Origin: Candidatus Shapirobacteria bacterium
Lineage (GTDB): Bacteria > Patescibacteriota > Microgenomatia > UBA12405
NCBI GenBank assembly: GCA_028700345.1
Contig: JAQVSW010000001.1
Location: 1 to 33,160, forward strand
Reading direction: 5' to 3'
DNA: 33,160 bases
Every line of letters begins with the position of its first letter. Positions within the stretch are counted from its first letter, which is position 1. This document shows, piece by piece, positions 4,393-26,253 of the stretch. A model generated the notes under the pieces. The model was given only the letters and a program-made list of their open reading frames with translations. It made no database searches and had not been told where the DNA came from. Made by a program: the position numbers and the translations under genes.

Positions 4393-4639
4393 ACTTTCAA
4401 AATATCTGGTTTTGATAAGTATTTTTACTTTTATTGCCATTTTTTTCTCTGTTGTCTCCCAAAGTTACAACAATTTAATTAAATCAACCGAGGAAAATCA
4501 AAACAACCCCCTTATTCGTTCTGTCTCTCCCGATCTTGACATTGATGTTCTTGATGAGATTGAAAAAAGGCAAGAAGTGATATTGTTAGAAACAGAAAAC
4601 TCCATCGAGGCAGAGAGTCAAGTTGAACCAGCCTTATGA
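4379..4639 (+). CDS. small membrane protein with acidic C-terminus, unknown function
   Basis: 86 aa with an N-terminal TM segment (YLVLISIFTFIAIFFSVV). It overlaps the upstream gene by 14 nt and the downstream gene through ATGA. Confidence 0.5.
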   Translation: MSKIKLSKYLVLISIFTFIAIFFSVVSQSYNNLIKSTEENQNNPLIRSVSPDLDIDVLDEIEKRQEVILLETENSIEAESQVEPAL

Positions 4640-5877
4640 AGGATAAAAAATTCCCAACTATTTTTGGAATCATTCTTCTTTTAATTATCTTATTTTTAGG
4701 TGTTTTTCTCTCCACTCAAAAAACAAGTTTAAATTCAAAAGCCAGTGTTTCTTGTGAGCCTATAAATACTCAAATAACCAATCTTACTGATAAATCTTTT
4801 GATTTTTCTTTTACCACTTCTTCTCCCTGTAGTGCTACCCTAACAATCAATAATATTCTTTATCAGGATGTTTCACTTTCTTTAACTACTCATTATTACA
4901 AGATTTTTAATCTTTCTCCCAAAACTGATTATAAATTCAGTCTTATTTCCGGTTCAACCACCTATTCCAGACCTGAATATTCTCTTACCACTGCCACAAA
5001 ACCAAATTCACCACCTCCCTCATCAAATTTAGCTTGGGGAAAAATAATTGATAAAAGCAACAAAGCTGTTTCTGGTGCCATAATTTATCTTACTCTTCCC
5101 GGCAGTCAAGCTCTTTCTGCCTTTTCCAATAAAGATGGTAACTGGAATATTTCTCTCGCTTCTAGTTTTAATGAGCAAAAAACCGATTGGTTTTCTCCCT
5201 CTTCGATTGTTGATGAAGAAATAATTGTCTATTCACCTGATGGTCAGTTAACTCAGGTTACTAATCAATCAGATCGAAACGATCCAGTTCCAGATATTAT
5301 TATCGGTCAAGATTATCTTTCTGTTATTCCCACCCCTCCCTCTTCATTTCAAAGCAGTTTAAATTCCTCTCAAATAGAGACCAGTTTAGCAAAATTAAGT
5401 ATTACCAGTCCTAAAGAAAATGAAACAATTTATACTTTAAAACCTGATATTTTTGGTCAAGGTCCAGCCAGTAATACCTTTCAATTAGATATAGATGGCA
5501 ATAAAGAAAATATCACCGTTTCCCCAAGTAATATTTGGAATTACTCTCCTTCTCAAAACTTATCACCTGGTTCTCATTTGTTAACATTAAATTTTCAAGG
5601 TGAAATTATAAGTCGTAATTTTGTAGTAGCTCAAACTAATGATTATCTTTCTTTTACCGCTACGCCTTCAGCCACTTTAATTCCCACTCAAGTTGTTATT
5701 CCCACGATTTTCGCTTCGCCAACTCCTATTATCCAGCCTACTTTAGTTCCTACTATCAGAACCGCCAAGCCTTCAACTACTTCCACTCTCTATGAAAGTG
5801 GTAATTCCCTGCCAACTTATTTAATATCGATTTTATCTATTTTATTTTTTGGTGTATCATTTTATTACTCTCATTAA
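4636..5877 (+). CDS. multidomain surface protein (Fn3-like, carboxypeptidase-regulatory-like and Ig-like beta domains, PT-rich linker, C-terminal TM tail)
   Basis: 413 aa with an N-terminal signal/anchor. WGKIIDKSNKAVSGAIIYLTLPGS..NKDGNWNISL resembles a CarboxypepD_reg-type domain. The C-terminus is LYESGNSLPTYLISILSILFFGVSFYYSH. Confidence 0.6.
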   Translation: MKDKKFPTIFGIILLLIILFLGVFLSTQKTSLNSKASVSCEPINTQITNLTDKSFDFSFTTSSPCSATLTINNILYQDVSLSLTTHYYKIFNLSPKTDYKFSLISGSTTYSRPEYSLTTATKPNSPPPSSNLAWGKIIDKSNKAVSGAIIYLTLPGSQALSAFSNKDGNWNISLASSFNEQKTDWFSPSSIVDEEIIVYSPDGQLTQVTNQSDRNDPVPDIIIGQDYLSVIPTPPSSFQSSLNSSQIETSLAKLSITSPKENETIYTLKPDIFGQGPASNTFQLDIDGNKENITVSPSNIWNYSPSQNLSPGSHLLTLNFQGEIISRNFVVAQTNDYLSFTATPSATLIPTQVVIPTIFASPTPIIQPTLVPTIRTAKPSTTSTLYESGNSLPTYLISILSILFFGVSFYYSH

Positions 5878-6866
5878 TGAAAAAATACGGTATTTTTAGT
5901 ATTCTATTTTTATTCCTTTCTTTGTTGGGGTCTCTTTATTTAGTCAAGATGAATCAAGATAATCGTAAGTATGCTCTAGATACTTATCGAGTCGACCCCC
6001 CAAACATTACTTTTACCTCCAATAAATCTGTCAAACTTTTTTTTACTACCAAAATTACTAATAATTCCTTTATTATTAAACTTCAGAATATAAATAATTC
6101 CAATGATATTATTACCCTTAGTACTGGCAATTCTCCAATGCCGATCAACACTACCCATATTTTTTCAAACATCTTAACTACCGGCTCTTCCCCAGCTACT
6201 TATCGTTTATCGGTTAAAGCCAGTCGTGATCTGTCTAACGCTTACGGCTGGGTGAATCCTAATTCTGGAGAAACTTGTGGAAAAAATAATAGCACCATAG
6301 TTCCTATTGGAGACGATATTAATCGGGCTCAACAAGAAGCAGATGGTCCTTTTCAAATTCAATGTTGGGCGGATGCCATCATTCCCGATGATACCCAAGA
6401 TTATGATTTTAATGATTGGTTAATGATTTTTGGATATGAAAAACCAATTGAAATTTCTCCAACTCCCACTAACACACCAGTTCCCACCGCCACCGGTACT
6501 CCTAAACCAACCAATACCCCCGTCCCCACTGCAACCAATATTCCTAAGCCCACCGCCACCAATACCCCCGTCCCCACTGCAACCAATACTCCTGCCCCTA
6601 CCGCCACCGGTACTCCTAAACCAACCAATACCCCCGTCCCCACTGCAACCAGTACTCCTAAGCCCACCGCCACTGGCACTCCTCAGCCTACTGCTACCAA
6701 TACGCCAATTCCGCCCACAAATACTCCTCTTCCAACCCAAGTCATTGCCCAGGGTCCTAGTCCAACTCGGATAATTTTACTTGAGTCCGGCATTGAATTT
6801 CCTTCCCAAATCTTAACTATCTTTGGTGGCATCATCACTCTTCTTGGATTTTTGATATTATTGTAG
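5877..6866 (+). CDS. surface protein with DUF4114-like motif, long TPxPTAT repeat linker and C-terminal TM tail
   Basis: 329 aa with an N-terminal signal-like segment. CWADAIIPDDTQDYDFNDWLMIFGY resembles the WED..D.DFND signature of DUF4114. About 95 aa consist of Pro/Thr repeats. The C-terminus is LLESGIEFPSQILTIFGGIITLLGFLILL. Confidence 0.6.
   Translation: MKKYGIFSILFLFLSLLGSLYLVKMNQDNRKYALDTYRVDPPNITFTSNKSVKLFFTTKITNNSFIIKLQNINNSNDIITLSTGNSPMPINTTHIFSNILTTGSSPATYRLSVKASRDLSNAYGWVNPNSGETCGKNNSTIVPIGDDINRAQQEADGPFQIQCWADAIIPDDTQDYDFNDWLMIFGYEKPIEISPTPTNTPVPTATGTPKPTNTPVPTATNIPKPTATNTPVPTATNTPAPTATGTPKPTNTPVPTATSTPKPTATGTPQPTATNTPIPPTNTPLPTQVIAQGPSPTRIILLESGIEFPSQILTIFGGIITLLGFLILL
6456..6740 (+). 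repeat. in-frame imperfect tandem repeat encoding (T/N)TP(V/K/A/Q)PTAT units
   Basis: A 47-nt perfect direct repeat (caccggtactcctaaaccaaccaatacccccgtccccactgcaacca) occurs at 6491..6537 and 6605..6651. A third copy of aatacccccgtccccactgcaaccaata lies at 6561..6588. Confidence 0.9.
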
Positions 6867-6867
6867 T

Positions 6868-7773
6868 GTGTTAGCCATTATTGAAGCTCTTCGTCCAAAT
6901 CAGTGGATAAAAAATCTTAGTCTTTTCGCAGCGGCCATTCTCACTGGTCAACTTTTTAATCACAGAATATTTAATGCCAGCTTACTCGCATTTATTTCTT
7001 TTTGTGTTCTTTCCTCATCCTCTTATTTAGTCAATGATCTTCTTGATATTGATAAAGATCGTCTTCATCCTGTTAAAAAATATCGCCCACTTGCTCGTGG
7101 AGCTATTAGTAAAAATACTTCTCTTTTTGTTGCTCTTTTTTTAACAATTCTGGGTCTTTTTATTGCTTTTTCTATAAATTCAGCTTTTTTTATTATCGCT
7201 CTTGTTTTTATTTTTATGCAGTATTCATATTCTCTTTTTATTAAAAAAAAGGCCCTTATAGACATTGTCAGTATTGCATTTTTCTTTATTCTCAGAACTT
7301 ATGCTGGTGAAATTGCCACTGGCTTCCATTTGCCTATTTGGATTACCCTGACAGTTATTTTTCTAGCTTTATTTATTGCTAGTGGTAAACGACGGAGCGA
7401 ACTCTACCTCAGTGGAAAATCAACTCGCAAAGCTCTTGAGGGATACAGTAAAAGTTTACTAAATTTTTACACTACTATTTTTGCCGTCTGTACCTTAATT
7501 AGCTATGCCATGTTTACTTTTTTAGCCGAAAAAGTTAGTTTTGATGGCATTATTCATGAGTTTTTATTGACAAATTTTCCCGCCGCTCTTGATCGAAAAT
7601 GGTGGATGGTTACTCTTATGCCCGTAATTCTTGGCATTATGCGTTATGGTCAAATTATTTTTGAAATGCAGGAAGGTGAAAGGCCTGAAAGAGTTGTTGC
7701 CACCGATATTCCCTTACTTGGTTCAGTTCTTCTTTGGGGAATGATGATAATTACTATTATCTATGTTCTCTAA
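6868..7773 (+). CDS. UbiA-family prenyltransferase, decaprenyl-phosphate phosphoribosyltransferase (DPPR synthase)-like
   Basis: 301 aa with a GTG start. The N-terminal ALRPNQWIKNL and the NDLLDIDKDRLHPVKKYRPLARGAIS motif (NDxxDxxxD) match what I recall for Rv3806c-type enzymes. The protein is polytopic. Confidence 0.75.
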   Translation: MLAIIEALRPNQWIKNLSLFAAAILTGQLFNHRIFNASLLAFISFCVLSSSSYLVNDLLDIDKDRLHPVKKYRPLARGAISKNTSLFVALFLTILGLFIAFSINSAFFIIALVFIFMQYSYSLFIKKKALIDIVSIAFFFILRTYAGEIATGFHLPIWITLTVIFLALFIASGKRRSELYLSGKSTRKALEGYSKSLLNFYTTIFAVCTLISYAMFTFLAEKVSFDGIIHEFLLTNFPAALDRKWWMVTLMPVILGIMRYGQIIFEMQEGERPERVVATDIPLLGSVLLWGMMIITIIYVL

Positions 7774-9319
7774 AAAAAATTCTCTCTCTCTTTTTTTGAT
7801 TATTTTTATAGTTTCATTGTCTATTTTTACCCGTTTTTACAATTTAAACTGGGGTAGTAATTACCATTTTCATCCTGATGAAAACAATATGGCCTCGGCT
7901 CTTTCTCGTTTACAGATTTACAATTTAGATCCCAAATTTTATCCTTACGGCCAGTTTCCTCTTTATTTAGGGTTTTTTACTTTAAAAATATTTAATCTTC
8001 CCCCTTCTTTTTCTAATTCAATTTTAATTCTTCGCTTTTATTCTGCCTTTTTTTCTATCTTATCAGTCGGTTTAATTTATTTAGTTTCTCAAAAAATTTT
8101 TTCCCAAAAATTTTCTATCTTAGTCTCAATTTTAACTATTTTTAGTCCTGGACTAATTCAGCTAGCTCATTTTGGGACTACCGAAAGCCTATTAATTTTT
8201 ATATTTTTACTCGAAATATATTTATCAATTTTGATTTACCAAAAAAAAGATAATTATTGGCAGTACATCCTTGCTGGCATCTTTGGCGGTATTGGCATAG
8301 CCACTAAAATATCCTCTCTTATTTTTTTAGGTCCAATTTTTTTAGTTTCTCTAATGAAATTTATTTCAAAAGAAAAAATACTATCTCTTTTTTTAAAAAT
8401 TTATATATTAATATTTTTTGTTATTAACTTTTATTTGATTTCTTCTCCATACAATTTTGCTAAGAGTCAAGATTTCTTCTCCTCGATGAAATATGAAACT
8501 AGTGTTGCCACTGGGGAGTTGTCAGTTTTTTACACCACTCAGTTTAAAAATACCCTACCTTATTTATTTCAAATCCAAAAAATATTTCCTTATTCTTCAG
8601 GTATCTTTCAATTCATCTTTACCATCATTGGTCTAGTTTTTTTATTGAAAAATTGGAAACTCAAAGAAGATAAATATCTTTACTGGTTTATTATTTTGAT
8701 TCCTTCTTTAGTTTACTTTTTTTATTTCGGTCAAATTTTTGCTAAATGGACCCGTTTCGTCTCCCCTTTATTTTTTTTATTTCCCCTACTCTCAGTTTAT
8801 TTTATTTCTCTCCTGAAATCTAAAATCTATTGTCTAATCTCTATCATCTTAGCTCTCCTTCCCGGTCTATATTTTATGAAACTATATTTTGTCTCTGATA
8901 TTCGTCTTACTGCTTCCCGGTGGATAGAAAATAATATTCCGCAGGGTTCAAGCATTCTTTCTGAGGGGGGTAATGTCGTTAATATTCCAATTACTGATCA
9001 AAACTACCAGGTTATTAATTATGATTTCTATGGTGATAATTATCCAAACGAATTGTCTAATCATCTCTTTACTTCTAACTATATTATTATTCCTTCTCGT
9101 CGGGTCTTTAAAAATTATGATTTAAAATATCACCAGTATCTTTTTGATGGTAGCCTGGGATATAAAGAAATCAATAAAATATCTCCCAATTACGACCTGT
9201 TTTTAGATTCAGAAAATGCTGAAGAAACTTGGTCCGTTTTTGATCATCCCACTATTCGAGTTTTTGAAAAAGTTAATGAGTTGACTCAAGAGGAATATGA
9301 AAAGCTTCTACAAAAATAA
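7763..9319 (+). CDS. GT-C fold membrane glycosyltransferase (GT39/ArnT-like), paralog 1
   Basis: 518 aa with many TM segments. The first loop reads FYNLNWGSNYHFHPDENNM, an acidic DE motif after TM1. The soluble C-terminal domain carries WSVFDHPTIRVFEK. Confidence 0.65.
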   Translation: MFSKKNSLSLFLIIFIVSLSIFTRFYNLNWGSNYHFHPDENNMASALSRLQIYNLDPKFYPYGQFPLYLGFFTLKIFNLPPSFSNSILILRFYSAFFSILSVGLIYLVSQKIFSQKFSILVSILTIFSPGLIQLAHFGTTESLLIFIFLLEIYLSILIYQKKDNYWQYILAGIFGGIGIATKISSLIFLGPIFLVSLMKFISKEKILSLFLKIYILIFFVINFYLISSPYNFAKSQDFFSSMKYETSVATGELSVFYTTQFKNTLPYLFQIQKIFPYSSGIFQFIFTIIGLVFLLKNWKLKEDKYLYWFIILIPSLVYFFYFGQIFAKWTRFVSPLFFLFPLLSVYFISLLKSKIYCLISIILALLPGLYFMKLYFVSDIRLTASRWIENNIPQGSSILSEGGNVVNIPITDQNYQVINYDFYGDNYPNELSNHLFTSNYIIIPSRRVFKNYDLKYHQYLFDGSLGYKEINKISPNYDLFLDSENAEETWSVFDHPTIRVFEKVNELTQEEYEKLLQK

Positions 9320-10949
9320 ATTAATAATATTTTTAATTTTTATAATTGCCTTTCTTTTTCGTATTTACGGTTTAAATTGGGATGATAACAATCATCTTCA
9401 TCCTGACGAGAGATTTTTGACTATGGTCGTAAACGATATCAAATTACCCTCTTCTTTTTCAGAGTATCTAAACACCGACATTTCACCTCTTAATCCTTAC
9501 AATTACCCTCAGTATCAGTTTTTTGTTTACGGTACTTTTCCTCTATTTTTAACAAAAATATTCGCCGTATTATTTCATCTAGATGATTATAATCACATCA
9601 CCCTCCTTGGCCGAGTACTCTCGGCATTTTTTGATTCAGGCAACGTTATTCTTCTTTATTTTATTGCCAAAAAATTTCTTAAATCTTACTATATTTTTCT
9701 TCCTTCGCTTTTTTATACTTTTTTAGTTATCCCTCTCCAGCTTTCTCATTTTTTCGCCGTTGATACTTTTTTAACTTTTTTTATTCTCTTAACATTTACC
9801 TTATTTTCTTATAATCTTTTTCCTCTTGCCTTTTTTGCTTTTGGTATTGCTCTTTCCTGTAAAATTTCCGCTCTTTACTTTATTCCGATTATCCTTTTAT
9901 TTTTAATCAAAAATAAAAATCTAAAATCTATTTTCTATTGTCAAATTTCTATTTTGGCTTTTCGAATATTTCAACCTTATGCTTTTACTAATATTTTTAA
10001 AATTAATCCTCTCTTTATTGATAATCTAAAAACCCTTGCCAATTTTTCCGGATCTGATATTTATTATCCACCGGGAGTTCAGTGGATCAATCGACTTTTG
10101 TTTTTAGATTCTTCAGTTAATCTAGTTGTTTGGGGATTGGGTCTGGTATTTTCTTTACCTTTATTATTTTTAATTTTTCGTTTTTTTATTAAACCAAAAA
10201 TTAAATTTAATTTAATCTTCATTATTTCTTTTTGGATTATCCTACTGTTTATTTATCAATCTCTCCAATTTGCTCACACTATGCGTTATTATCTGCCTGT
10301 TTATCCGTTTATTTGTCTAATTTTTGTAACTCTTTTGTCTCAATTTAAATTAAAAAAATTCATAATTATTTTAATCTTAATCCTTAATATTTTTTATGCC
10401 CTTGCTTTTCTCTCAATTTATTCTCGTCCCAATTCTCGGATACAGGCATCAAATTGGATAAATCAATATATTCCTCAGGGCAGTGTTCTAAGTAGTGAAT
10501 ATTGGGACGATGCCCTGCCTCTAGGTTATTCTGATTATGAAAATATCTCTCTCCCTCTTTTTGATCCAGACACTCCAGAAAAATGGGAAAAAATCAACCA
10601 TTCGCTTGAGGAGATTGATTATATAATAATGTCCAGCAATCGTCTATGGGCCTCAATTCCTAGAGTTTCAGAGAAGTATCCCTTAGCTTCAGAATTTTAT
10701 AGAAACCTTTTTGCTGAAAAATTAAATTTTAAAAAATTCAAAGAATTTAATTCTTACCCCGGTTTTTCTCTCTCGTTTCTAAAATCTTGTCTATACCTAG
10801 GCCCTACCAATTACCCTGGCATTAAAAACACCTGGTTTTCTGTTGACAATAACTGTTCTTATCCAGGTATTTATTTTCGTGATGACACCTCCGAGGAAGC
10901 ATTTACTGTCTACGACCATCCGAAGGTTTTAATCTTTGAGAGAAAATGA
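9297..10949 (+). CDS. GT-C fold membrane glycosyltransferase (GT39/ArnT-like), paralog 2
   Basis: 550 aa with the same architecture as paralog 1. The first loop reads IYGLNWDDNNHLHPDERFL and the C-terminus reads FTVYDHPKVLIFERK. It overlaps the previous gene by 23 nt. Confidence 0.65.
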   Translation: MKSFYKNKLIIFLIFIIAFLFRIYGLNWDDNNHLHPDERFLTMVVNDIKLPSSFSEYLNTDISPLNPYNYPQYQFFVYGTFPLFLTKIFAVLFHLDDYNHITLLGRVLSAFFDSGNVILLYFIAKKFLKSYYIFLPSLFYTFLVIPLQLSHFFAVDTFLTFFILLTFTLFSYNLFPLAFFAFGIALSCKISALYFIPIILLFLIKNKNLKSIFYCQISILAFRIFQPYAFTNIFKINPLFIDNLKTLANFSGSDIYYPPGVQWINRLLFLDSSVNLVVWGLGLVFSLPLLFLIFRFFIKPKIKFNLIFIISFWIILLFIYQSLQFAHTMRYYLPVYPFICLIFVTLLSQFKLKKFIIILILILNIFYALAFLSIYSRPNSRIQASNWINQYIPQGSVLSSEYWDDALPLGYSDYENISLPLFDPDTPEKWEKINHSLEEIDYIIMSSNRLWASIPRVSEKYPLASEFYRNLFAEKLNFKKFKEFNSYPGFSLSFLKSCLYLGPTNYPGIKNTWFSVDNNCSYPGIYFRDDTSEEAFTVYDHPKVLIFERK

Positions 10950-11707
10950 AATTAATAAAAATTTTAAAATACTATTTCCACATTCTATTACTGATGTTTT
11001 TAAATATAAAAACAATTTCTTATCATCATAAATATTTTTTTATTAAGCTAAAAAACAATACTGTTTTTAAAATTAGAAATTTTATGGATTTATGGACTTT
11101 AACTGAAACATACTTGAATAGTGACTATGAAAAACATGGTGATAAATTAGGTGTGAATTGGACTATTATTGATATCGGTGCTGCTTTCGGCGACTTTTCA
11201 GTTTTTGCAGCTCAAAAATCATCGCTAAATCAAATTATCGCCATTGAACCTCTGCCGAGCTCTCAAAGACTGTTTCGTCAAAATATTAGAATGAATAAAT
11301 TAAAAAATATAATAATTTTTTCTGGGGGAATTTCTTCAACTCAAAATAAAATAAATATCGCAGAAAATAATAAAAATTATGGTCATAGTCAAACGTCTTC
11401 GACTTCTTCCTTTTGTGTCGACGCCATTTCTTTGCCAAAATTATTTTCAAAATATAATCTGAAACATTGTCATTTAATTAAGTGTGATTGTGAAGGAACA
11501 GAATATGATATTTTTTCAAATGTTCCCTCATCAATCTACGCCAAAATTGACCGTATCGTTATGGAATATCATTTGTTTGATTTTGACTCCCAGCAAAAAT
11601 TTCAACGCCTTAAATCAATTTTTAAAAAAAATAATTATCGACTTAAAATTTCTCCTAATCCGGTTCATTCAAATCTCGGTTTTCTTTACGCCTTTCGCAA
11701 AAATTGA
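10946..11707 (+). CDS. FkbM-family SAM-dependent methyltransferase
   Basis: 253 aa. IIDIGAAFGDFSVFAA is a SAM-binding Gly-rich loop, and IKCDCEGTEYDIF is a typical FkbM motif. It overlaps the upstream gene through ATGA. Confidence 0.7.
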   Translation: MKLIKILKYYFHILLLMFLNIKTISYHHKYFFIKLKNNTVFKIRNFMDLWTLTETYLNSDYEKHGDKLGVNWTIIDIGAAFGDFSVFAAQKSSLNQIIAIEPLPSSQRLFRQNIRMNKLKNIIIFSGGISSTQNKINIAENNKNYGHSQTSSTSSFCVDAISLPKLFSKYNLKHCHLIKCDCEGTEYDIFSNVPSSIYAKIDRIVMEYHLFDFDSQQKFQRLKSIFKKNNYRLKISPNPVHSNLGFLYAFRKN

Positions 11708-12388
11708 GTTTGACTTTGTTTTCTGTTGAAAAATATACCCAATATTTTTCAACAAGGATTTTATTCTTGTATTTCCATCTTCAACACATATTACTTTTGG
11801 GCTATATTTATTCCATGGCCAATTTTTTAATATCATTTCATCAAATCCCTCAGTATCAATTGACAAAAAATCAATATTTTCATCAATAATCTCATCTACT
11901 TTTATAGTTTTAATTTTTATTATTTTTTCTAATTTATGTCCATTGTTAATATTTTTTTCAGCATCTCCTTTTGAAAAAGTATTTAGAGCTGGTATTAAAA
12001 ATTGATAATAATTCATACTGCCATTTATATTTGAAATACCAGCGTTTATAAAATTATCTTCCGGACGGATTTTATTAAAAATATTTTTGACTTCCGGATT
12101 TGGCTCAACAACAGTACCCCTCCAACCTATTTTATAAAAATGATAAGTATTACTAAGTCTAGTCGGGTGATATGCTCCAATTTCAAGATATTTACCTCGG
12201 TATTTTCTATCAAAATATTTTTCAACAATTAAGTCCTCATAATTTTGTGAATAAGATCCCACCAGCATCTCCCTCCATATTCTTCTCTTTATTTCTTTCA
12301 ACCCAGCTTTAATTAAAAATCCTAATTTATAATTCTTAATCAATTCAAAATATTTTTTCATATTTTTTAACAGTTTTTTTGTAGTCAA
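11669..12388 (-). CDS. FkbM-family SAM-dependent methyltransferase
   Basis: 239 aa with YLEIGAYHPTRLSNTY and FLSIDTEGFDEMIL. The true start may be the internal ATG at 12361 (MKKYFELIKN). Confidence 0.65.
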   Translation of the reverse strand: MTTKKLLKNMKKYFELIKNYKLGFLIKAGLKEIKRRIWREMLVGSYSQNYEDLIVEKYFDRKYRGKYLEIGAYHPTRLSNTYHFYKIGWRGTVVEPNPEVKNIFNKIRPEDNFINAGISNINGSMNYYQFLIPALNTFSKGDAEKNINNGHKLEKIIKIKTIKVDEIIDENIDFLSIDTEGFDEMILKNWPWNKYSPKVICVEDGNTRIKSLLKNIGYIFQQKTKSNSIFAKGVKKTEI

Positions 12389-13415
12389 ACAATTCTAAAT
12401 TTTTAGCTCTCTTTTTATAGAATTCTTTGCCATTTTTGCAAACTAAAATAATTTTATTTTTTAATTCTTCACTCTTATTGCTTTCAAAAAGCTCTCCCAT
12501 TTTGCTTAATTTTACTGGCAGTCTTACTCCAGGAATATCTGAAGTAATTACTGGACAGCCACTTTTTATAGCCTCTGCGGCTACCATCCCAAAAGATTCC
12601 AGGGGGTTATTGCTCGGCAATACAAGACAATTTATACTGTTAAAGAATTTTACTGGGTTGTCAATTTCACCTATTTTAAAAATATTTTCATTCTTTTTTA
12701 TAAGATTCAAAATATTTTTTTGATATTTTTTTTCACCAACTATTTTTTCTGGTCCAGCCAATACTAAAACATAGTTTTTTGGTAATTTTAAAAATGCTTT
12801 GATCAAGCATTCAATATTTTTTTCTTTAGAAATTCTCCCTAAATATCCAATTTTATATTTACCATTTATTTTAATTCTTCCGCCACTTTTTTTAATTTTA
12901 ATGGGTGGAAAAATTTCAACTATTTTATCTTGGTAATTATTTAGTAAATTGTTTCCCTTAACATAATCAAGAGAATTAACCACTATTTTTTCTGCCCAAA
13001 TTAAGGCGGGTAAGTGAATTAATTCAATAATTAAATTTAGAAATTTGTTTTCACTATCAAAACGGCAATGAAAGGTGACAATCAGTTTTTTCTTTAAAAT
13101 CTTTGCCCAAAGTGCTAGCCAAAAAGATTCAATTGACGGCAGATGACAGTTAACAATATCGTTATTTTTTACTTTTTTAAAACTAATAATTGGGTATTGC
13201 CACATTAAAAATCCTTTACCGATTTGCCATCCCTGAACTCTGTTGATTATTACATTATTTATTATTTCTTCATTCTTTAATTCTTTCTGAAACTTTGCAC
13301 CAATTACTTCTACCCTATTTTTCTTTGCTAATTCTTCGGCTAATATTTTAGCGTAAACACTCACTCCAGAAATATAAGGGCAGTAGTAGGTAACTCCAAT
13401 TAAAATTCTTTTCAT
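12345..13415 (-). CDS. GT4 (group 1) glycosyltransferase
   Basis: 356 aa with GT-B architecture. The E-x7-E motif is present in ESFGMVAAEAIKSGCPVITSD. Confidence 0.8.
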   Translation of the reverse strand: MKRILIGVTYYCPYISGVSVYAKILAEELAKKNRVEVIGAKFQKELKNEEIINNVIINRVQGWQIGKGFLMWQYPIISFKKVKNNDIVNCHLPSIESFWLALWAKILKKKLIVTFHCRFDSENKFLNLIIELIHLPALIWAEKIVVNSLDYVKGNNLLNNYQDKIVEIFPPIKIKKSGGRIKINGKYKIGYLGRISKEKNIECLIKAFLKLPKNYVLVLAGPEKIVGEKKYQKNILNLIKKNENIFKIGEIDNPVKFFNSINCLVLPSNNPLESFGMVAAEAIKSGCPVITSDIPGVRLPVKLSKMGELFESNKSEELKNKIILVCKNGKEFYKKRAKNLELFDYKKTVKKYEKIF

Positions 13416-13420
13416 TTAGT

Positions 13421-13429
13421 TGGTACAAT
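13421..13429 (+). promoter_or_regulatory. extended -10 element TGgTACAAT, 9 nt upstream of the PAP2 ATG
   Basis: It lies in the 23-nt spacer between the divergent GT4 and PAP2 genes, and that spacer contains no SD. Confidence 0.45.
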
Positions 13430-13438
13430 TATCTCATT

Positions 13439-14014
13439 ATGTCTACTGGTCATCCAGCTTTTCTTTTTTGGCAACCCAAAGTTGATTATCTTCGCCTTTT
13501 ATCTTCTTTTAAATTTGGTCGTAATATTTTAATTTTTTTAAACTATGCGATTTGGTTATTTTTTTTCTATCTTTCATATCTTTTAATAAAACACGATTTT
13601 TCTTTTTTTTGGTTACTACTATTAACCACATTATTGGCAGAAATAGTTGAACGTTTAATTAAGAAAAAAAATTTTTGGTGTCGACCTATGTTCTTGCGTC
13701 ATGACTGTACTCCCTCGGGTTTAGTTGACAAGTGGTACCGATCAGGAGCTTTTCCTTCAGGCCATACCATAAAGGCCACCATATTTCTTTTGTTTTTAAT
13801 TTTTACCCCTCTTTTTCCTTTGTGGCTATTTTTCATAATTGTCCTTCCCTTATTATGGTTTAGAGTCCTTGTCGGTTTTCATTATCCTGTCGATATTTTG
13901 GGTGGTATTGCAATCGGTTTTTTTATCTGGCTTATTATTTCTTTTCTAAATATAACTACCCCCCTTGATCCTTATTTACAGTCTATATTTAATACTATTT
14001 TTCTAATCAACTAA
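13439..14014 (+). CDS. PAP2-family membrane phosphatase (polyprenyl/lipid phosphate phosphatase type)
   Basis: 191 aa. All three PAP2 motifs are visible: KKKNFWCRP (KX6RP), FPSGH (PSGH) and RVLVGFHYPVD (RX5HX3D). Confidence 0.8.
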   Translation: MSTGHPAFLFWQPKVDYLRLLSSFKFGRNILIFLNYAIWLFFFYLSYLLIKHDFSFFWLLLLTTLLAEIVERLIKKKNFWCRPMFLRHDCTPSGLVDKWYRSGAFPSGHTIKATIFLLFLIFTPLFPLWLFFIIVLPLLWFRVLVGFHYPVDILGGIAIGFFIWLIISFLNITTPLDPYLQSIFNTIFLIN

Positions 14015-14024
14015 TTATCTAATC

Positions 14025-16037
14025 ATGCTTTCTGATTTTAAATATATTTTTACTTGGTGGCTTAGTCTATTTTTTCTTTCCTTTCTTTCTTTACCTTTAA
14101 TCTTTTTACTCTTCAAAAAATTTTGGGATAAAGGTTATATTTTTGCCAAAACTTGTTCAATTTTTATTTTAAGTTACTTCCTGTTAGTTTTAGGGATATT
14201 TAAAATTACTACTTTTACCCTACCTTGCATTTATTTTATTATCACCATCTACGCCGCTATTAATTTTTATTTATTTATTAAAAATAAATTATATTTTAAG
14301 AGTTTATTTAAAAAACATTGGCGAATTTTTCTTTTTGAGGAAATTTTATTTTTTCTTATCTTAATGCTTTGGTCTTATGTTCGTGGCTTTGCTCCCGATA
14401 TTGAAGGTCTTGAAAAATTTATGGACTGGGGTTTTGTTAATTCGGCCCTTCGCAGTCAGTATTTTCCTCCAGCTGACATGTGGTATGCTGGCCAGTCGAT
14501 TAATTATTATTATTTTGGCCATTTAGTTTTTGCATTTTTAACCAAATTTTCAGGTATTGCTTCAGCTATTACTTATAATCTATCTATTGCCACTGTCTGC
14601 GGCCTAACCTTTGTTTCGGGATTCTCATTGACTTCAAACTTAATTTATAGCACCCTCAAAAAACCCATTTTTCGACTGTATTTTGTTGGTGGTCTTTTAT
14701 CAGCCTTTTTATTAACCTTCGGCGGCAATCTTCACCTCATCTATAAGATTAGTAAAACCATGATCGAAGAAAAACAAAATCTTCAATCGGCAAGTGCTAG
14801 TTATTGGTATCCTGACGCTACTCGTTTTATTGGTTTTGATCCTGATACTACAGATAAAACTATTCACGAATTTCCCATGTATAGCTTCGTTGTTGCCGAC
14901 CTTCATGGCCATATGAATGACATCCCTCTGGTAATTTTCTTCATGGCCTTCCTCTTTGTTTCTCTCACCTCAATCTCAAATTTAAAATCTTATTTCTTTC
15001 TCCCGGCTGGTTTTCTTCTATCTCTGGCTTATATGACCAATGCCTGGGATTTTGCTGTTTATGGTTTACTTTTTGCCATTGCTTCTTTTTTGGTTACTAA
15101 AAAATTTTGGCCAACCATTTTTTCTGGTCTTTTAACTATTGCCTTTTGGTTTTTATTTACCCTTCCTTTTTCTCTCAATTTCACTCCCATGGCTGAAGGT
15201 CTGGAGCTTTCTGATGCCCGTTCACCCTTATATCAACTCTTCGTTTTATACGGTGGTTTTTGGTTAATTTCCCTGCCTTTTATATCTTATTTTTTTAAGA
15301 ATTTTCGCTCCAAAAAAATCTTATCAACAGATTATTTTGTTTTAGCTATATTAATTACCGCCACTATTTTAATCATAATTCCTGAAATTTTTTATATCAA
15401 AGATATTTATGTTTTTGACTATCGCCGAGCCAATACCATGTTCAAATTAGTTTACCAAGCTTTCATTATGTATTCCCTTATTGCTGGTTATATTTTTATT
15501 CGTCTTCGTCATTCTTTTGCTTATCGTTTTCTTTTTTCTTTAGTTTTTATTTTTCATCTTAGCTATTCTTATTTCGCCACCAAATCATATTACGGTTTAA
15601 AAGAATATAAGAGCCTTTGGGGTTTAAAATTTTTAGAAATTTCTTATCCAGATAATCTGGCTGCCATAAACTGGTTAAACAATAATATTTCTGGTCAACC
15701 TCATATCGTCGAAGCCGTGGGGGATAGCTACACCACCTTTAATCAGATTTCAATGGCGACTGGCTTACCTACCATTGAGGGGTGGATAGTTCATGAATGG
15801 CTCTGGAGGGGAGGTTATGATGCCCCCGCTGCCCGCCAAAATGAAGTTGAAATTATTTATACCTCTGTCGATTCCCGGGAAGTGAAGTCTATTTTAGACA
15901 AATATCAAATTAAATATATTATCGTTGGCGCCAAAGAATATGAAAAATACCCCGACCTCGATCCAGATAAATTTGATTTAGTTGATGCCAAAGTCGTTTT
16001 CGAATCGGGTCAAACCAGAATTTATCAACTACCTTAA
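14025..16037 (+). CDS. DUF2298-type large polytopic membrane protein (predicted GT-C-like)
   Basis: 670 aa. EKFMDWGFVNSALRSQYFPPADMWYAGQSINYYYFGH and DLHGHM resemble the DUF2298 signature as I recall it. A soluble C-terminal domain is present. Confidence 0.6.
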   Translation: MLSDFKYIFTWWLSLFFLSFLSLPLIFLLFKKFWDKGYIFAKTCSIFILSYFLLVLGIFKITTFTLPCIYFIITIYAAINFYLFIKNKLYFKSLFKKHWRIFLFEEILFFLILMLWSYVRGFAPDIEGLEKFMDWGFVNSALRSQYFPPADMWYAGQSINYYYFGHLVFAFLTKFSGIASAITYNLSIATVCGLTFVSGFSLTSNLIYSTLKKPIFRLYFVGGLLSAFLLTFGGNLHLIYKISKTMIEEKQNLQSASASYWYPDATRFIGFDPDTTDKTIHEFPMYSFVVADLHGHMNDIPLVIFFMAFLFVSLTSISNLKSYFFLPAGFLLSLAYMTNAWDFAVYGLLFAIASFLVTKKFWPTIFSGLLTIAFWFLFTLPFSLNFTPMAEGLELSDARSPLYQLFVLYGGFWLISLPFISYFFKNFRSKKILSTDYFVLAILITATILIIIPEIFYIKDIYVFDYRRANTMFKLVYQAFIMYSLIAGYIFIRLRHSFAYRFLFSLVFIFHLSYSYFATKSYYGLKEYKSLWGLKFLEISYPDNLAAINWLNNNISGQPHIVEAVGDSYTTFNQISMATGLPTIEGWIVHEWLWRGGYDAPAARQNEVEIIYTSVDSREVKSILDKYQIKYIIVGAKEYEKYPDLDPDKFDLVDAKVVFESGQTRIYQLP

Positions 16038-16150
16038 ATTATTATAATTTTTTACCGGTTGTTAATTAATAACTCGTAATTGATAATTGATAAGCATTTA
16101 TTCTTTATTTAATTTTTTAGACTTTAGGCTTTAGAATTTTTTTGTATTTT

Positions 16151-18064
16151 ATGTCTGACATTCTTTCTGGTTTAAATAAATTTCAAAAAGAGGCGGTAAT
16201 CTATCAAGGAACTCCTCTTTTGATTTTGGCTGGAGCTGGCTCAGGTAAAACTCGAGTTTTAACCCACCGCGCTGCTTATTTTGTTGAGCAAAAATTAGCC
16301 TCTCCTTCAGAAGTTTTATTACTCACTTTTACCAACAAAGCTGCTGGAGAAATGAAAGAACGCATGTCAAAATTATTGCCAAAGCTAAATGCGGGTTCAC
16401 CCGCCAACACTGCGGAGCTGTGGGCGGGAACCTTTCATTCTTTTGGCTGTCGAGTTCTCCGAATTCATGGCAAAAATATTGGTCTTTCTTCTGACTTTGT
16501 TATATATGACAGCGACGATCAGGAGAACTTACTTCGCTCCGTTCTTTCCGGTATGGGTCTAACCGTAAAAGAATTTAAACCCACCTCTCTTCTTTATTTT
16601 ATTGAAAGCGCCAAAAATTCTTTCCAATCTCCCAATCAAGTTCAATTAGAAGCCAAAGGTTTTTGGGAGGTTACTGCGGCTAAAATTTATGCCAAATATC
16701 AATCTCAACTTCTTAAAAATATGGCTCTTGATTTTAATGATTTACTTTTTAAGACTGTCGAGCTCTTTCAACAGTATCCGCAGGTTATAGAAAAATATTG
16801 GCAAAAATACCATTATATTTTAGTTGATGAATATCAGGATACTAATGAGCTTCAGTATTTATTAACTAAGCTTTTAGCCGCTAAATATCAACAAATTACT
16901 GCTGTTGGCGATGCTTCTCAGTCAATTTATGGTTGGCGTGGTGCCAATTACAAAAATCTCTCTTCTTTTTCTCTTGATTTCCCCAACACCAAGATTATCA
17001 ACTTAGAGGAAAACTACCGCTCGACTAAAAATATTTTAAGTGCTGCCAACTCAGTTATTTCTAAAAACACTAGCCATCCAGTTTTAAATCTATTTACTAA
17101 AAAGAATTCCCCAGCCAAGATAAAAATATTTGAAGCTGATTCTGAAATAGCGGAGGCCGATTATATTTCAGAAAAAATAAAAGAGCTTCACACTTCCCTC
17201 CATTTTGCCTACAAAGATATCGCCGTTTTATACCGCATGAACGCCCAGTCCCGGGCTATTGAAGAATCATTTTTAAGAAACACTATTCCTTATGTTCTAA
17301 TTGGCGGTCTACGTTTTTATGACAGGGCTGAAATTAAGGATATAATTGCCATGCTTCGGATTGCCTTAAATTCCAAAGATGCTCTTTCCGCAGCTCGGGT
17401 AGAAAAAACATTAGGTAAACGACGCAAAATTATTTTTGATCAGCATTTAGATAATTTAAATCTAAAAAAATTATCATCTCTCCAGATTTTAGAATCACTG
17501 GTTGTCAATTCTGGCTATTTAAGTAAATATAATCCCCAAGAAGAGGATGATTTAAAAAAAATCGAAAACATCAAAGAATTAAAATCAGTTGCCGCCACCT
17601 ATCCTAAATTAAGTGATTTTTTGGAAAATATCGCTCTAGTTCAGCAGGAATATTCCCTTCAAGAAAAAAATAAGAAAAAAGAAAATCGTGAAGGCGTTCG
17701 CCTCATGACCCTTCACAGCAGTAAAGGGCTCGAGTTTGAGGCCGTTTTTTTAGTTGGTTTCGAAGAGGGGATACTGCCTCATTCTCGTTCCATGCTTACT
17801 GAGACTGAAATTGAAGAAGAGCGTCGTCTTTGTTATGTGGGGATTACTAGAGCCAAAGAATTACTTTTTATTACCTACGCCTCTCGTCGTCTCTTTTTTG
17901 GGAAATCATCTCTCAATGAAGCCTCTCGTTTTCTTTATGACATTCCTCGGGAATTGGTGGAGTACGATTCTTTTTCTGAAATAACTCGCGATTTTCGTTC
18001 TCCTCGTCGTTTTTCTAAATCTGATTCCAGCACAAATTTAATCTACGATCCTGATATATACTAA
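16151..18064 (+). CDS. pcrA: UvrD/PcrA-type SF1 DNA helicase
   Basis: Motifs seen: AGAGSGKT, DEYQDT, VGDASQSIYGWRGA, NYRS, LHSSKGLEFEAVFLVG and RRLCYVGITRAKE. The track ORF starts at TTG 16142; ATG 16151 (MSDILSGLN) is more plausible. Confidence 0.9.
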   Translation: MSDILSGLNKFQKEAVIYQGTPLLILAGAGSGKTRVLTHRAAYFVEQKLASPSEVLLLTFTNKAAGEMKERMSKLLPKLNAGSPANTAELWAGTFHSFGCRVLRIHGKNIGLSSDFVIYDSDDQENLLRSVLSGMGLTVKEFKPTSLLYFIESAKNSFQSPNQVQLEAKGFWEVTAAKIYAKYQSQLLKNMALDFNDLLFKTVELFQQYPQVIEKYWQKYHYILVDEYQDTNELQYLLTKLLAAKYQQITAVGDASQSIYGWRGANYKNLSSFSLDFPNTKIINLEENYRSTKNILSAANSVISKNTSHPVLNLFTKKNSPAKIKIFEADSEIAEADYISEKIKELHTSLHFAYKDIAVLYRMNAQSRAIEESFLRNTIPYVLIGGLRFYDRAEIKDIIAMLRIALNSKDALSAARVEKTLGKRRKIIFDQHLDNLNLKKLSSLQILESLVVNSGYLSKYNPQEEDDLKKIENIKELKSVAATYPKLSDFLENIALVQQEYSLQEKNKKKENREGVRLMTLHSSKGLEFEAVFLVGFEEGILPHSRSMLTETEIEEERRLCYVGITRAKELLFITYASRRLFFGKSSLNEASRFLYDIPRELVEYDSFSEITRDFRSPRRFSKSDSSTNLIYDPDIY

Positions 18065-18073
18065 TATAAGGCT

Positions 18074-19123
18074 ATGATTACTCGAATTCTATACAATGAA
18101 GAAAAAGAAGCATATTCAAAAGCGGTAATTCATCCGGTTCAAACTTGGGAGTGGGGGGAGTTTCAGCAGTCCCAGGGTCACAAAGTCTATCGCTTGGGAA
18201 TTTTTGACCAAGATAAACTAATTTCTGGTTATATGCTTTCTTTTCATCAAATTCCTCACACTAAATTTACTATCGGCACTCTTCTTCGAGGTCCCAAGAT
18301 TGACAAGGATATGATTGAAAATATCGGGAAAATCGCTCAAAATGAAAATGCTATATTTGTCAAAATAGAGCCTGATGATATTGAAAAAATTTATGACAAT
18401 AAAAATCAACTTTTAAAAAATAAAAGTATTGTTTTAAATTTTCCTGGCCTTGTTGTTTCTCCCAAAGTTGCTTTTTACCCTCATTCTTATATTGTCGATT
18501 TAAAAAAATCCGAGGAAGATTTACTTTCAGATATGTCCCCCAAAACTCGTTACAACATCAAGCTGGCCAACAGACATGGCGTAAAAATATCTCATTCCAC
18601 CAAAGACGAAGATTTCGAAATTTATCTAAAGATGCTTTTTGATACGACTCGTCGTCAAGGATTTTATTTACATTCTGAAAATTATCATCGCCGTCAATGG
18701 TCTCTTCTTAAAAATACTGGTATCCCTGAAATTTTTTTAGCCTCTTACCAAGATAAAATTCTGGCTGCCTTTATGATTTTTAAACTAAGAGATCGACTTT
18801 TTTATCCCTATGGGGCTTCACTTGACACTCACCGTGAGGTTATGGCTCCAACATTACTCATGTGGGAAGTAATTAAATATGGACAGTCCCTGGGACTTAA
18901 AAGTTTTGACATGTGGGGTTGCCTTGGACCTGATGCTAGTGTTAAAGATCAAGGTTATGGTTTTCATCGTTTTAAACAAGGCTTTGGTGGTAATCTAGTT
19001 CAATTTGTTGGTACCTATGATTTAGTCATTAACCCTCAGTATTACAAAATATACAATTTAGTTGATAAATATCGCTGGAAATTACTCCGTCTCAAAGCCA
19101 GTTTACCCAAACTATTTAAGTAG
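18074..19123 (+). CDS. FemAB/FemX-family aminoacyl-tRNA-dependent peptidoglycan peptide-bridge transferase
   Basis: 349 aa. WEWGEFQ, PKTRYNIKLANRHGV, FYPYGAS and MWGC are typical FemX-like segments. No coiled-coil insert is present. Confidence 0.7.
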   Translation: MITRILYNEEKEAYSKAVIHPVQTWEWGEFQQSQGHKVYRLGIFDQDKLISGYMLSFHQIPHTKFTIGTLLRGPKIDKDMIENIGKIAQNENAIFVKIEPDDIEKIYDNKNQLLKNKSIVLNFPGLVVSPKVAFYPHSYIVDLKKSEEDLLSDMSPKTRYNIKLANRHGVKISHSTKDEDFEIYLKMLFDTTRRQGFYLHSENYHRRQWSLLKNTGIPEIFLASYQDKILAAFMIFKLRDRLFYPYGASLDTHREVMAPTLLMWEVIKYGQSLGLKSFDMWGCLGPDASVKDQGYGFHRFKQGFGGNLVQFVGTYDLVINPQYYKIYNLVDKYRWKLLRLKASLPKLFK

Positions 19124-26037: not shown

Positions 26038-26253
26038 ATGAGACAAATAATCAATATTTCTCTTCCTGAGTCGATGGCCAAGTATGTTAACAATGCTGTT
26101 AAAAAAGGCCGATTTGCTAGTAAAAGTGAATTCTTTCGTCATCTTCTTCGTGAACAATCAGAAAATGATTTATATAAAGAATTAAAGAAAGACCAAAAAG
26201 AGTTTAAAAAAGGAAATGGTATTTTACTTCACACTTTGAAAGATCTAAGATAA
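26038..26253 (+). CDS. ribbon-helix-helix (CopG-like) antitoxin
   Basis: 71 aa. IINISLPESMAKYVNNAVKKGRFASKSEFFRHLLRE fits a beta-strand plus two-helix RHH pattern. It lies 4 nt upstream of the toxin. Confidence 0.75.
   Translation: MRQIINISLPESMAKYVNNAVKKGRFASKSEFFRHLLREQSENDLYKELKKDQKEFKKGNGILLHTLKDLR

Follow-up and report, generated by a model that had tools for sequence, protein, structure and literature searches.

We analyzed a 33-kb stretch of DNA (hereafter, the window) from Candidatus Shapirobacteria, a lineage of Microgenomates within the Candidate Phyla Radiation (CPR, or Patescibacteria); close homologs of its proteins bear the same name. Our subject is a predicted envelope glycosylation cluster built around a UbiA-superfamily protein (6868-7773), here called PPPRS, for polyprenyl-phosphate 5-phosphoribosyltransferase. 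The identical genes sit on a 739-kb contig, and in total we inspected about 53 kb (about 7%) of the ~740-kb genome. A scan of GTDB species genomes yielded 79 PPPRS loci; loci used for comparison carry L numbers where they need to be told apart. Every open reading frame (ORF) listed in a preliminary description of this DNA was present where it had been placed, with the domains ascribed to it, including two FkbM methyltransferases and a GT4 glycosyltransferase (10946-11707 on the plus strand; 11669-12388 and 12345-13415 on the minus strand). The features of the cluster are listed below; surf1 and surf2 are surface proteins, GT-C is a fold class of membrane glycosyltransferases, PMT stands for protein O-mannosyltransferase, and TM stands for transmembrane segment.

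1591-3198, plus strand: MurJ, a lipid flippase of the MOP superfamily, encoded by the first gene of the string (TIGR01695 264.7 bits, cut-off 235.6; MatE 42 bits).
3225-3803, plus strand: PilN-like protein (PilN 29.8 bits).
3781-4392 and 4379-4639, plus strand: two small single-TM proteins without a Pfam family, conserved in synteny.
4636-5877, plus strand: surf1, with an N-terminal TM, an immunoglobulin (Ig)-like/fn3 region, a Pro/Thr-rich (PT-rich) stalk, and LYESG followed by a TM (weak fn3 and Big_13 matches).
5877-6866, plus strand: surf2, with a signal/TM, a globular domain, a long PT-rich repeat stalk, and a C-terminal LLESG followed by a TM.
6868-7773, plus strand: PPPRS, of the UbiA superfamily and the Rv3806c/DPPR-synthase family (Pfam UbiA 78 bits; PDB 8j8j E = 1.9e-37).
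7763-9319, plus strand: GT-C1, PMT/ArnT-like (PMT 38.2 bits and PMT_2 38.4 bits, above the Pfam cut-offs).
9297-10949, plus strand: GT-C2, a paralog of GT-C1 (PMT_2 17 bits, below the cut-off).
10946-11707, plus strand: FkbM methyltransferase 1, S-adenosylmethionine-dependent, accessory (Methyltransf_21 55.5 bits; TIGR01444 90 bits).
11669-12388, minus strand: FkbM methyltransferase 2, accessory (Methyltransf_21 65 bits).
12345-13415, minus strand: cytoplasmic GT4 (GT-B) glycosyltransferase, accessory (Glycos_transf_1 95.9 bits; Glyco_transf_4 38 bits).
13439-14014, plus strand: PAP2 membrane phosphatase (Pfam PAP2 49.6 bits; three motifs).
14025-16037, plus strand: DUF2298/Chlor_Arch_YYY membrane protein with a C-terminal globular domain (PF10060 299 bits; TIGR03662 428 bits, cut-off 300).

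Between positions 3225 (start of the PilN-like gene) and 11707 (end of the first FkbM gene), all junctions are overlaps or gaps of at most 1 nt. The gaps in the string of the PilN-like, small-protein, and surf1 genes are -23, -14, and -4 nt; the surf1 stop overlaps the surf2 start; and 1 nt separates the end of surf2 from the start of PPPRS. PPPRS and GT-C1 overlap by 11 nt, and GT-C1 and GT-C2 overlap by 23 nt. A promoter and terminator scan returned 88 promoter-like sites compared to 60 expected and is uninformative in AT-rich DNA; the inference of an operon therefore rests on the gene overlaps.

The sequences EALRPNQWIKNL and VNDLLDIDKDRLHP, which the preliminary description had named as UbiA signatures, are both read in the translation of 6868-7773. 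In a comparison with proteins of solved structure, the best match was Mycobacterium tuberculosis Rv3806c (PDB 8j8j, E = 1.9e-37), and the next prenyltransferase followed at E = 1.9e-9. The NCBIfam models for decaprenyl-phosphoribose synthase (DPPRS) scored 204.6, 182.4, and 158.8 bits, and every other UbiA family scored 57.8 bits or less, with the CyoE, UbiA, MenA-type, and ChlG models at or below 42 bits. A homolog with 70% identity (P0101) carries the NCBI name "decaprenyl-phosphate phosphoribosyltransferase." The structure paper on Rv3806c gives the residues that hold the Mg2+, pyrophosphate, ribose, and 5-phosphate of phosphoribosyl pyrophosphate (PRPP), and among these the phosphoribose contacts K28, Y70, N73, and Q135 are not conserved in ordinary UbiA enzymes (PMC10994848). 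When aligned with an Rv3806c fragment, the window protein is identical at 11 of the 12 PRPP/Mg contacts (R22, K28, Y70, N73, D77, K87, R90, Q135, Y138, K143, and K208). The remaining contact, Y157 of Rv3806c, is Phe in the window protein, a substitution that also occurs in some mycobacteria (PMC10994848). Eleven of the 12 contact positions are invariant in 20 aligned CPR homologs, and the K208 position varies. Together, the DPPRS model scores, the Rv3806c match, and the conserved PRPP residues place the protein with the Rv3806c type, as the preliminary description had supposed, and exclude a quinone or heme prenyltransferase; on this sequence evidence we regard the predicted phosphoribosyltransferase identity of 6868-7773 as firm. 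PPPRS is the sole synthase of a lipid-linked sugar encoded in the window.

About 20 of the 22 CPR genomes with sequence downstream share the gene order UbiA, GT-C1, GT-C2, which argues that the arrangement is not due to chance; in L023, two genes are inserted between GT-C1 and GT-C2. The shared gene order in Shapirobacteria, Woesebacteria, and another Microgenomates genome runs MurJ, PilN-like, two small membrane proteins, surf1, (surf2), PPPRS, GT-C1, GT-C2, a variable insert, PAP2, DUF2298, UvrD, FemAB, and GatCAB. The insert holds mixtures of FkbM or other methyltransferases, GT4, and extra PMT_2 GT-Cs, or is empty. Both FkbM genes of the window are found in some related loci only and the GT4 gene is absent from L015 and L035; these genes are best seen as a strain-variable cassette that decorates or diversifies the glycan. 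Gottesmanbacteria have PPPRS, GT-C1, and GT-C2 only, preceded by an Ig-like small protein and a flavin adenine dinucleotide (FAD) oxidoreductase of the PRK07233 type. Because Gottesmanbacteria keep these three genes alone, PPPRS, GT-C1, and GT-C2 constitute the conserved core. PAP2 and DUF2298, 10 nt apart in the window and adjacent in 10 of the 12 informative loci, are a second tightly linked pair that joins the core in part of the clade only. Where PAP2 occurs in Shapirobacteria and Woesebacteria loci, it always precedes DUF2298.

Downstream of the cluster, genes for a UvrD-like helicase, a FemAB-family peptidyltransferase, and GatCAB (16142-19123 and 19730-22823) are conserved in order with it in both Shapirobacteria and Woesebacteria, which indicates that the glycosylation block belongs to the stable core genome rather than to a mobile island. 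The preliminary description had called such a pathway unusual for a reduced genome. We do not find it to be an oddity, given that it fits the systems described by Kelly et al. in 2024 (PMC11127046) and is conserved in Shapirobacteria, Woesebacteria, and Gottesmanbacteria. A different arrangement is seen in two more distant CPR genomes, L026 (8898-10037) and L027 from Daviesbacteria (8982-10031), where PPPRS has no adjoining GT-C and lies after a Glycos_transf_4 protein (WecA/MraY-type) and before a protein with PEGA and SH3 domains.

The three proteins that the preliminary description had taken for GT-Cs are correctly so described, according to Pfam, profile, and AlphaFold2 (AF2)/Foldseek evidence, and comprise a PMT/ArnT-like paralog pair and DUF2298. 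GT-C1 and GT-C2 align over their full length at 26% identity (BLASTP, E = 6e-25), including a common C-terminal domain. A profile of 37 GT-C1/2 orthologs matched the solved structures of yeast Pmt1 (E = 1.7e-6), Pmt2 (4.8e-4), and ArnT (4.7e-3), and NCBI calls GT-C1/2 homologs "GT39 family." A Pro-Asp-Glu just past the first TM (HPDE in GT-C1; D39 and E40) is invariant in the 37 sequences of both paralogs, at what we take to be the site of the catalytic Asp-Glu in PMTs. The AF2 model of GT-C1 had a predicted local distance difference test (pLDDT) value of 86.9, and its best 40 PDB matches were all GT-C, with nothing else at high probability.

DUF2298 (14025-16037) is not a recognized GT-C by sequence alone. 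Its AlphaFold model had a pLDDT of 80 and a predicted TM-score (pTM) of 0.87, with low pLDDT in several conserved loops. Foldseek returned 10 significant PDB matches (E <= 2.2e-4), all of them GT-C proteins (STT3, DPY19, AftA, and AglB) with moderate TM-scores of 0.32 to 0.48; STT3 matched at E = 3e-6, AftA gave TM-scores of 0.46 to 0.48, and the C-terminal domain resembled the C-terminal globular domain of AglB. The YYYxG motif lies at residues 161-165, and N160-Y-Y-Y-F-G165 is invariant. Single-sequence PDB searches with GT-C1, DUF2298, and PAP2 gave nothing useful. We also considered DUF2298 as a third paralog of GT-C1/2 and rejected this, because there is no profile-level relation between them (profile-profile probability 10%). 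The Pfam Arabinose_trans/Emb models did not match the GT-Cs of the window, and AftA, AftB, AftD, and Emb appeared as general GT-C fold matches only. In sum, GT-C1, GT-C2, and DUF2298 all have the GT-C fold, and the fold gives no donor identity. Several Shapirobacteria homologs of DUF2298 (P0134, P0136, P0143, P0152, P0162, and P0163) have an additional LysM (peptidoglycan-binding) domain at the C-terminus. Its presence hints that the family may act at or on the cell wall, and would also fit a cell wall acceptor.

With moderate confidence, we read the region as the CPR version of a PRPP-fed, extracytoplasmic pentofuranose glycosylation system. In the first step, which strong homology and active-site conservation predict, the protein encoded at 6868-7773 would move ribose-5-phosphate from PRPP to polyprenyl phosphate at the inner face of the membrane; this is predicted to be the first committed step, PRPP + polyprenyl-P giving polyprenyl-P-ribofuranose-5-P. 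The 5-phosphate would then be removed, most plausibly by PAP2, by analogy with Rv3807c and given the synteny. With no epimerase at hand, the donor would remain polyprenyl-P-ribofuranose, which would be flipped across the membrane. There, the translationally coupled GT-C1/GT-C2 pair (7763-10949) would put the pentose on acceptors outside the membrane, perhaps as a heterodimer like Pmt1-Pmt2 or as a primer and an extender, and DUF2298 may join them. The predicted acceptors are Ser/Thr residues in the PT-rich stalks of surf1 and surf2 (4636-6866).

Several observations weigh against this proposal or parts of it. On the NF008978 model, PPPRS scored 204.6 bits against a cut-off of 207, or 2.4 bits short. 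When we compared the GT-C1/2 and DUF2298 profiles to the ORFs adjoining PPPRS genes in other phyla, we found no homolog; therefore, the donor specificity of GT-C1/2 is not transferable by homology from the PPPRS-linked GT-Cs of those phyla, and a cross-phylum "pentofuranosyltransferase" family cannot be claimed. The best NCBIfam matches of PAP2 are undecaprenyl-diphosphate phosphatases, at low scores. Gottesmanbacteria loci have no PAP2-DUF2298 pair within 10 kb, and their clusters have no PT-rich neighbors. In L019, DUF2298 occurs without PAP2, and the variable insert splits PAP2-DUF2298 from the UbiA module. No gene for a dedicated flippase of the GtrA or MATE type was found in the window. 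Finally, the identity of the sugar is read from an absence within ~53 kb of a ~740-kb genome, and the dprE1/E2 genes of M. tuberculosis are, as we understand it, not adjacent to ubiA.

The alternative that survives best, although we consider it unlikely, is that the locus combines two unrelated modules. UbiA, GT-C1, and GT-C2 would handle the pentose, and PAP2-DUF2298 would be an oligosaccharyltransferase- or ligase-like GT-C for a polyprenyl-PP-glycan with its recycling phosphatase; the ribose 5-phosphate would be removed by another enzyme or kept. The close spacing of PAP2 and DUF2298 (10 nt; adjacent in 10 of 12 loci), yet separated from UbiA by the insert, is as this alternative would have it, as are the Gottesmanbacteria loci with the core alone, and the pair may be an independent module, given these loci, the insert, and the lone DUF2298 of L019. 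The best structural matches of DUF2298 are the oligosaccharyltransferases STT3 and AglB, with the C-terminal domain included, and the nearest NCBIfam models for PAP2 are the undecaprenyl-diphosphatases. However, the genes from UbiA through PAP2-DUF2298 to UvrD are collinear across Shapirobacteria, Woesebacteria, and other Microgenomates, and the window encodes neither an initiating phosphoglycosyltransferase nor Wzx/Wzy-type machinery.

The PAP2 protein itself bears on this choice. The three motifs that had been reported for it, KKKNFWCRP, PSGH, and RVLVGFHYPVD, are all read in the translation (K76-x6-R82-P83; P105-S-G-H108; R142-x5-H148-x3-D152). In a phmmer search it was weakly but detectably similar (E = 4e-7 to 1e-6) to the PAP2 ORFs that in Rhodococcus and Gordonia immediately precede ubiA, which is the Rv3807c position, and this similarity argues against two unrelated modules. 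By analogy, PAP2 is a candidate 5'-phosphatase for polyprenyl-P-ribose-5-P, with a polyprenyl-diphosphate phosphatase as the alternative; because PAP2-DUF2298 is separable from the UbiA module, the phosphatase role rests on analogy.

Three loci contain small ORFs of 178 to 193 aa with haloacid dehalogenase (HAD) motifs (DxDGV, S, K, EDD), all on the minus strand: L012 (16013-16594), L019 (9968-10504), and L020 (17994-18572). Their HAD assignment comes from sub-threshold Pfam matches only (E 0.002 to 0.03), and an hhalign comparison with the Lactococcus HAD-IB phosphatase was not significant (probability 3.7%; motif I alone, 11 columns). The L019 ORF occupies the usual PAP2 slot. As a lead only, it would be a non-orthologous replacement of PAP2, which fits one functional step for both proteins and speaks against two unrelated modules; on the other side, such an ORF could be the true 5'-phosphatase of some loci. 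For the flipping step, MurJ, the only MOP-family protein of the window, is syntenic in all Shapirobacteria and Woesebacteria loci and absent from Gottesmanbacteria loci. Its most likely role is that of the housekeeping flippase for lipid II; a part in flipping a lipid-linked pentose is speculative.

A second alternative, which we judge improbable, keeps the pathway and changes the sugar to arabinofuranose or xylofuranose, made by an epimerase encoded elsewhere (a DprE1/DprE2-type pair, an ORF13-like short-chain dehydrogenase/reductase [SDR], or another oxidoreductase). The M. tuberculosis precedent mentioned above, in which dprE1/E2 likewise do not adjoin ubiA, is consistent with it. In agreement with the preliminary description, which had noted no DprE1/E2-like oxidoreductase, domain searches found no FAD_binding_4 or SDR protein among the window ORFs of at least 80 aa, and tblastn with DprE1- and DprE2-like queries from the Chondrinema plasmid cluster (E <= 0.01) gave no match in the window or in any of the CPR loci (about 25 related genomes). 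As a positive control, the same queries matched genes adjoining PPPRS in six non-CPR loci. The 10 kb of the 739-kb contig that flank the window on each side contain housekeeping genes only, with neither a DprE1- nor a DprE2-type gene.

Redox enzymes do associate with the cluster in relatives, which favors the second alternative. L087 encodes an extended SDR between PAP2 and DUF2298 (8964-10010; 348 aa, with TGxxGxxG and YxxxK) that is 62% identical to a PPPRS-adjoining gene in a Krumholzibacteriia genome (L040, 11276-12307); from its sequence, it is a candidate lipid-linked pentose epimerase. The cluster in L006 includes a different, GalE/RmlB-like SDR (17336-18355). In addition, a ~420-aa FAD oxidoreductase, absent from the window, lies directly upstream of PPPRS in six Gottesmanbacteria loci and in Shapirobacteria L019. 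It was recognized by Amino_oxidase/NAD_binding_8 and NF005560 "PRK07233" (327 to 370 bits) and is found at L018 800-2056, L020 8694-9971, L022 5431-6681, L023 1904-3145, L024 5681-6949, L021 61-1365, and L019 3442-4668. Possible targets of this FAD oxidoreductase are the lipid-linked ribose, which it could oxidize, and the polyprenyl chain, which it could modify.

Against a changed sugar, no such genes and no DprE1/E2-like genes occur in the window, its 10-kb flanks, or most Shapirobacteria loci; the SDRs of relatives lie within the cluster, which suggests that an epimerase, when used, stays there; and the corresponding slot of the window is taken by the FkbM and GT4 genes. Citrobacter youngae O1 uses undecaprenyl-P-ribofuranose directly, as a common entry point (Kelly et al., PNAS 2024, PMC11127046). 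In C. youngae O2, the in-cluster SDR epimerase ORF13 makes a xylose donor, and gain or loss of the SDR epimerase switches the sugar (PMC11127046). Given this pattern, the lack of an epimerase here, and the in-cluster SDRs of relatives, an unepimerized ribofuranose donor is the most economical reading. The ribose donor proposed in the preliminary description is thus reasonable with respect to the missing epimerase, and is limited by the coverage of ~53 kb of the ~740-kb genome.

It is highly improbable, in our view, that GT-C1 and GT-C2 are ordinary enzymes of the protein O-mannosyltransferase or ArnT type whose donor, a hexose or an aminopentose, is synthesized elsewhere, with the PPPRS product serving another purpose. 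This idea draws on the PMT and ArnT matches in the Pfam and PDB profile comparisons, the NCBI "GT39 family" name, and some Gottesmanbacteria loci that add a GT2, a candidate polyprenyl-P-hexose synthase, beside extra PMT_2 genes. However, those matches are remote (E 1e-6 or weaker) and do not indicate the donor, the window encodes no GT2 and no DPM1-, GtrB-, or ArnC-type synthase, and GT39-annotated GT-Cs also occur in a PPPRS and DprE1/E2 cluster of other phyla. The overlaps of -11 and -23 nt and the near-universal adjacency of the genes also argue for a shared pathway. The preliminary description had held that its proposal would fail if the GT-Cs proved to be ArnT/PMT enzymes with other donors; GT-C1/2 do fall in the PMT/ArnT neighborhood, and the missing polyprenyl-P-hexose synthase and the overlap with the UbiA gene speak for the proposal nonetheless. 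Last, we find it hardly credible that 6868-7773 encodes an ordinary prenyltransferase for aromatic compounds or heme (quinone, heme O, or lipid synthesis) and that the glycosylation reading is wrong, as the generic Pfam UbiA domain and the name "4-hydroxybenzoate polyprenyltransferase" automatically given to many homologs by JGI might suggest, because the CyoE, UbiA, MenA-type, and ChlG models reach at most 42 bits compared to 159 to 205 bits for DPPRS, the phosphoribose-specific residues are conserved, and the neighboring genes concern glycosylation rather than quinone or heme synthesis.

Within the pentofuranose glycosylation system that we favor, the surface proteins are the candidate acceptors. 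The surf1 and surf2 genes are syntenic in Shapirobacteria and Woesebacteria, and surf1 orthologs in 17 loci share an architecture that ends in a C-terminal xPxTG/SG/AG and a TM. Over 40 residues, the stalks of the surf proteins and their orthologs reach 53 to 88% Pro+Thr+Ser. The surf2 stalk, with peptides such as TPVPTATNTPKPTAT, is encoded by a tandem DNA repeat (6483-6703) with periods of 24, 48, and 114 nt. In the near-identical strain L002, surf2 (5517-6392) has 291 aa compared to 329 aa here, exactly one 114-nt unit less, and the stalk length is thus polymorphic between strains. Pro/Thr-rich linkers are classical substrates of PMT-type enzymes, and in Pseudomonas aeruginosa, the GT-C TfpW attaches PPPRS-derived arabinofuranose to Ser/Thr residues of pilin. 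Based on these precedents and on synteny, we propose the stalks as acceptors: by analogy with the PMT-like enzymes and P. aeruginosa pilin arabinosylation, Ser/Thr residues of the surf1 and surf2 stalks are the most likely sites. Because Gottesmanbacteria lack PT-rich neighbors, a protein acceptor would hold at best for part of the clade. We rejected surf1 and surf2 as pilins, given that a class III (G/FTLIE-type) signal peptide is missing from both.

Relatives carry the sortase-type signals LPxAG, LPxSG, and xPxTG, and the window has LYESG (surf1) and LLESG (surf2); no sortase gene was found in the window. The C-termini of surf1 (5790-5877) and surf2 (6780-6866) have both lost the proline of the sorting motif, and this joint loss suggests a coordinated change of the motif. 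In its most specific form, our proposal is that Shapirobacteria and Woesebacteria O-glycosylate PT-rich, sortase-anchored stalks with ribofuranose by means of a CPR-specific heterodimeric PMT-like pair, and that DUF2298, as a new GT-C family, and its PAP2 partner serve the same pathway. We offer this version only tentatively and hold it to be doubtful as a whole. If true, this would be the first known case of protein O-ribofuranosylation, and CPR would have their first defined pathway of envelope glycosylation.

Among known systems, the three-component systems of Kelly et al. (C. youngae O1/O2, ORF15-ORF14-ORF12; PMC11127046) are alike in that a UbiA-family, PRPP-dependent synthase feeds an extracytoplasmic GT-C, ribofuranose is used directly without an epimerase, and an optional SDR diversifies the sugar (here, in relatives L087 and L006). 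PPPRS is clustered with a GT-C in those systems, which is also true here, where the genes overlap. The Kelly et al. systems have a fused HAD phosphatase domain, whereas the candidate phosphatase of the window, PAP2, is a separate membrane protein, and the three GT-Cs of the window probably belong to other sequence families than the Citrobacter GT-C (CAZy family GT136), namely, the PMT/ArnT-like pair and DUF2298. Furthermore, the Citrobacter prototype has a dedicated flippase (MATE or GtrA/SMR type), whereas none was found in the window, and its acceptor is the O-antigen, whereas here a protein is likely and the host is a monoderm-like CPR bacterium.

In the mycobacterial route to decaprenyl-phospho-arabinose (DPA), Rv3806c makes decaprenyl-phospho-5-phosphoribose, Rv3807c dephosphorylates it, DprE1/DprE2 epimerize it, and Emb/Aft GT-Cs transfer the sugar. 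The window resembles this pathway in its Rv3806c-like synthase with a PRPP site, its PAP2 like Rv3807c, and its multiple GT-Cs. It differs in that no DprE1/DprE2 gene was found across the ~53 kb inspected, its GT-Cs are not of the Emb/Aft family by sequence, and there is no arabinogalactan or lipoarabinomannan context; the mycobacterial lipid is C50, whereas the lipid here is probably C55. The arabinosylation of group IV pilin in P. aeruginosa (TfpW with PsPA7_6245-6249) is alike in that a GT-C attaches a PPPRS-derived pentofuranose to Ser/Thr residues of a surface protein, and the window genes adjoin PilN-like and surface-protein genes. The P. aeruginosa system has DprE1/E2 homologs, D-arabinofuranose (D-Araf), and pilin acceptors, in contrast to the putative sortase-type PT-stalk acceptors here.

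The closest relatives of GT-C1/2 are the GT39 PMTs (yeast Pmt1-Pmt2 and actinobacterial Pmt), which share the loop 1 Asp-Glu at a similarity that is remote (E = 1.7e-6 with the family profile). PMTs dimerize and act on Ser/Thr-rich regions, and here two adjacent paralogs lie beside PT-rich proteins. The PMT donor is polyprenyl- or dolichyl-P-mannose, whereas the window has no gene for a polyprenyl-P-mannose synthase and the predicted donor is a pentofuranose. Two plasmids complete the comparison. The cluster on the Lactococcus plasmid pLLF27D (L089), in which DPPRS is accompanied by a large hypothetical membrane protein, resembles the window in having no epimerase. It differs in that its phosphatase is of the HAD-IB type and that a GtrA flippase is encoded. 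The Chondrinema litorale plasmid (L090) has the epimerase layout with PMT-like GT-Cs, encoding DPPRS, an FAD-binding oxidoreductase and an SDR (a DprE1/E2-like pair), and several GT39/DUF2723 GT-Cs. Neither plasmid has DUF2298 or a detectable GT-C1/2 homolog.

CPR bacteria are ultrasmall and mostly uncultured, and they live on the surface of other cells or depend on them. That a conserved operon spending PRPP and three GT-Cs are kept in a 0.74-Mb genome suggests that the surface glycan is important to the host. Our literature search found no link between CPR/Patescibacteria and DPPR synthase or pentofuranose glycosylation, and DUF2298 was mentioned in passing only. The direct use of polyprenyl-phospho-ribofuranose without an epimerase was already established in 2024 (PMC11127046). 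What appears to be new is the CPR setting, the conservation across Microgenomates, a pair of PMT-like GT-Cs specific to CPR, the linkage to DUF2298 and to PAP2 rather than HAD, and the probable protein acceptors. The three-component pentofuranose concept, developed on proteobacterial O-antigens, would extend to a deep-branching lineage and possibly to protein acceptors. DUF2298/Chlor_Arch_YYY, a widespread family, gains a first functional context, and the analysis yields as leads a CPR-specific branch of PMT-like GT-Cs and named candidate acceptors.

Three further features of the window lie outside the cluster. A 180-aa ORF on the plus strand (1044-1586) has no family match, is antisense to the ribosomal protein S20 gene (1217-1537, minus strand), and is very probably spurious. 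A type II toxin-antitoxin pair is encoded at 26038-26253 and 26258-26515, with a 71-aa ribbon-helix-helix protein followed 4 nt on by an 85-aa HigB/RelE-like toxin. Although nearly all genes lie on the plus strand, GC skew is negative in all 1-kb bins up to ~31 kb, and the coding strand is C- and T-rich (window positions 1-31000), the reverse of the usual leading-strand gene bias.

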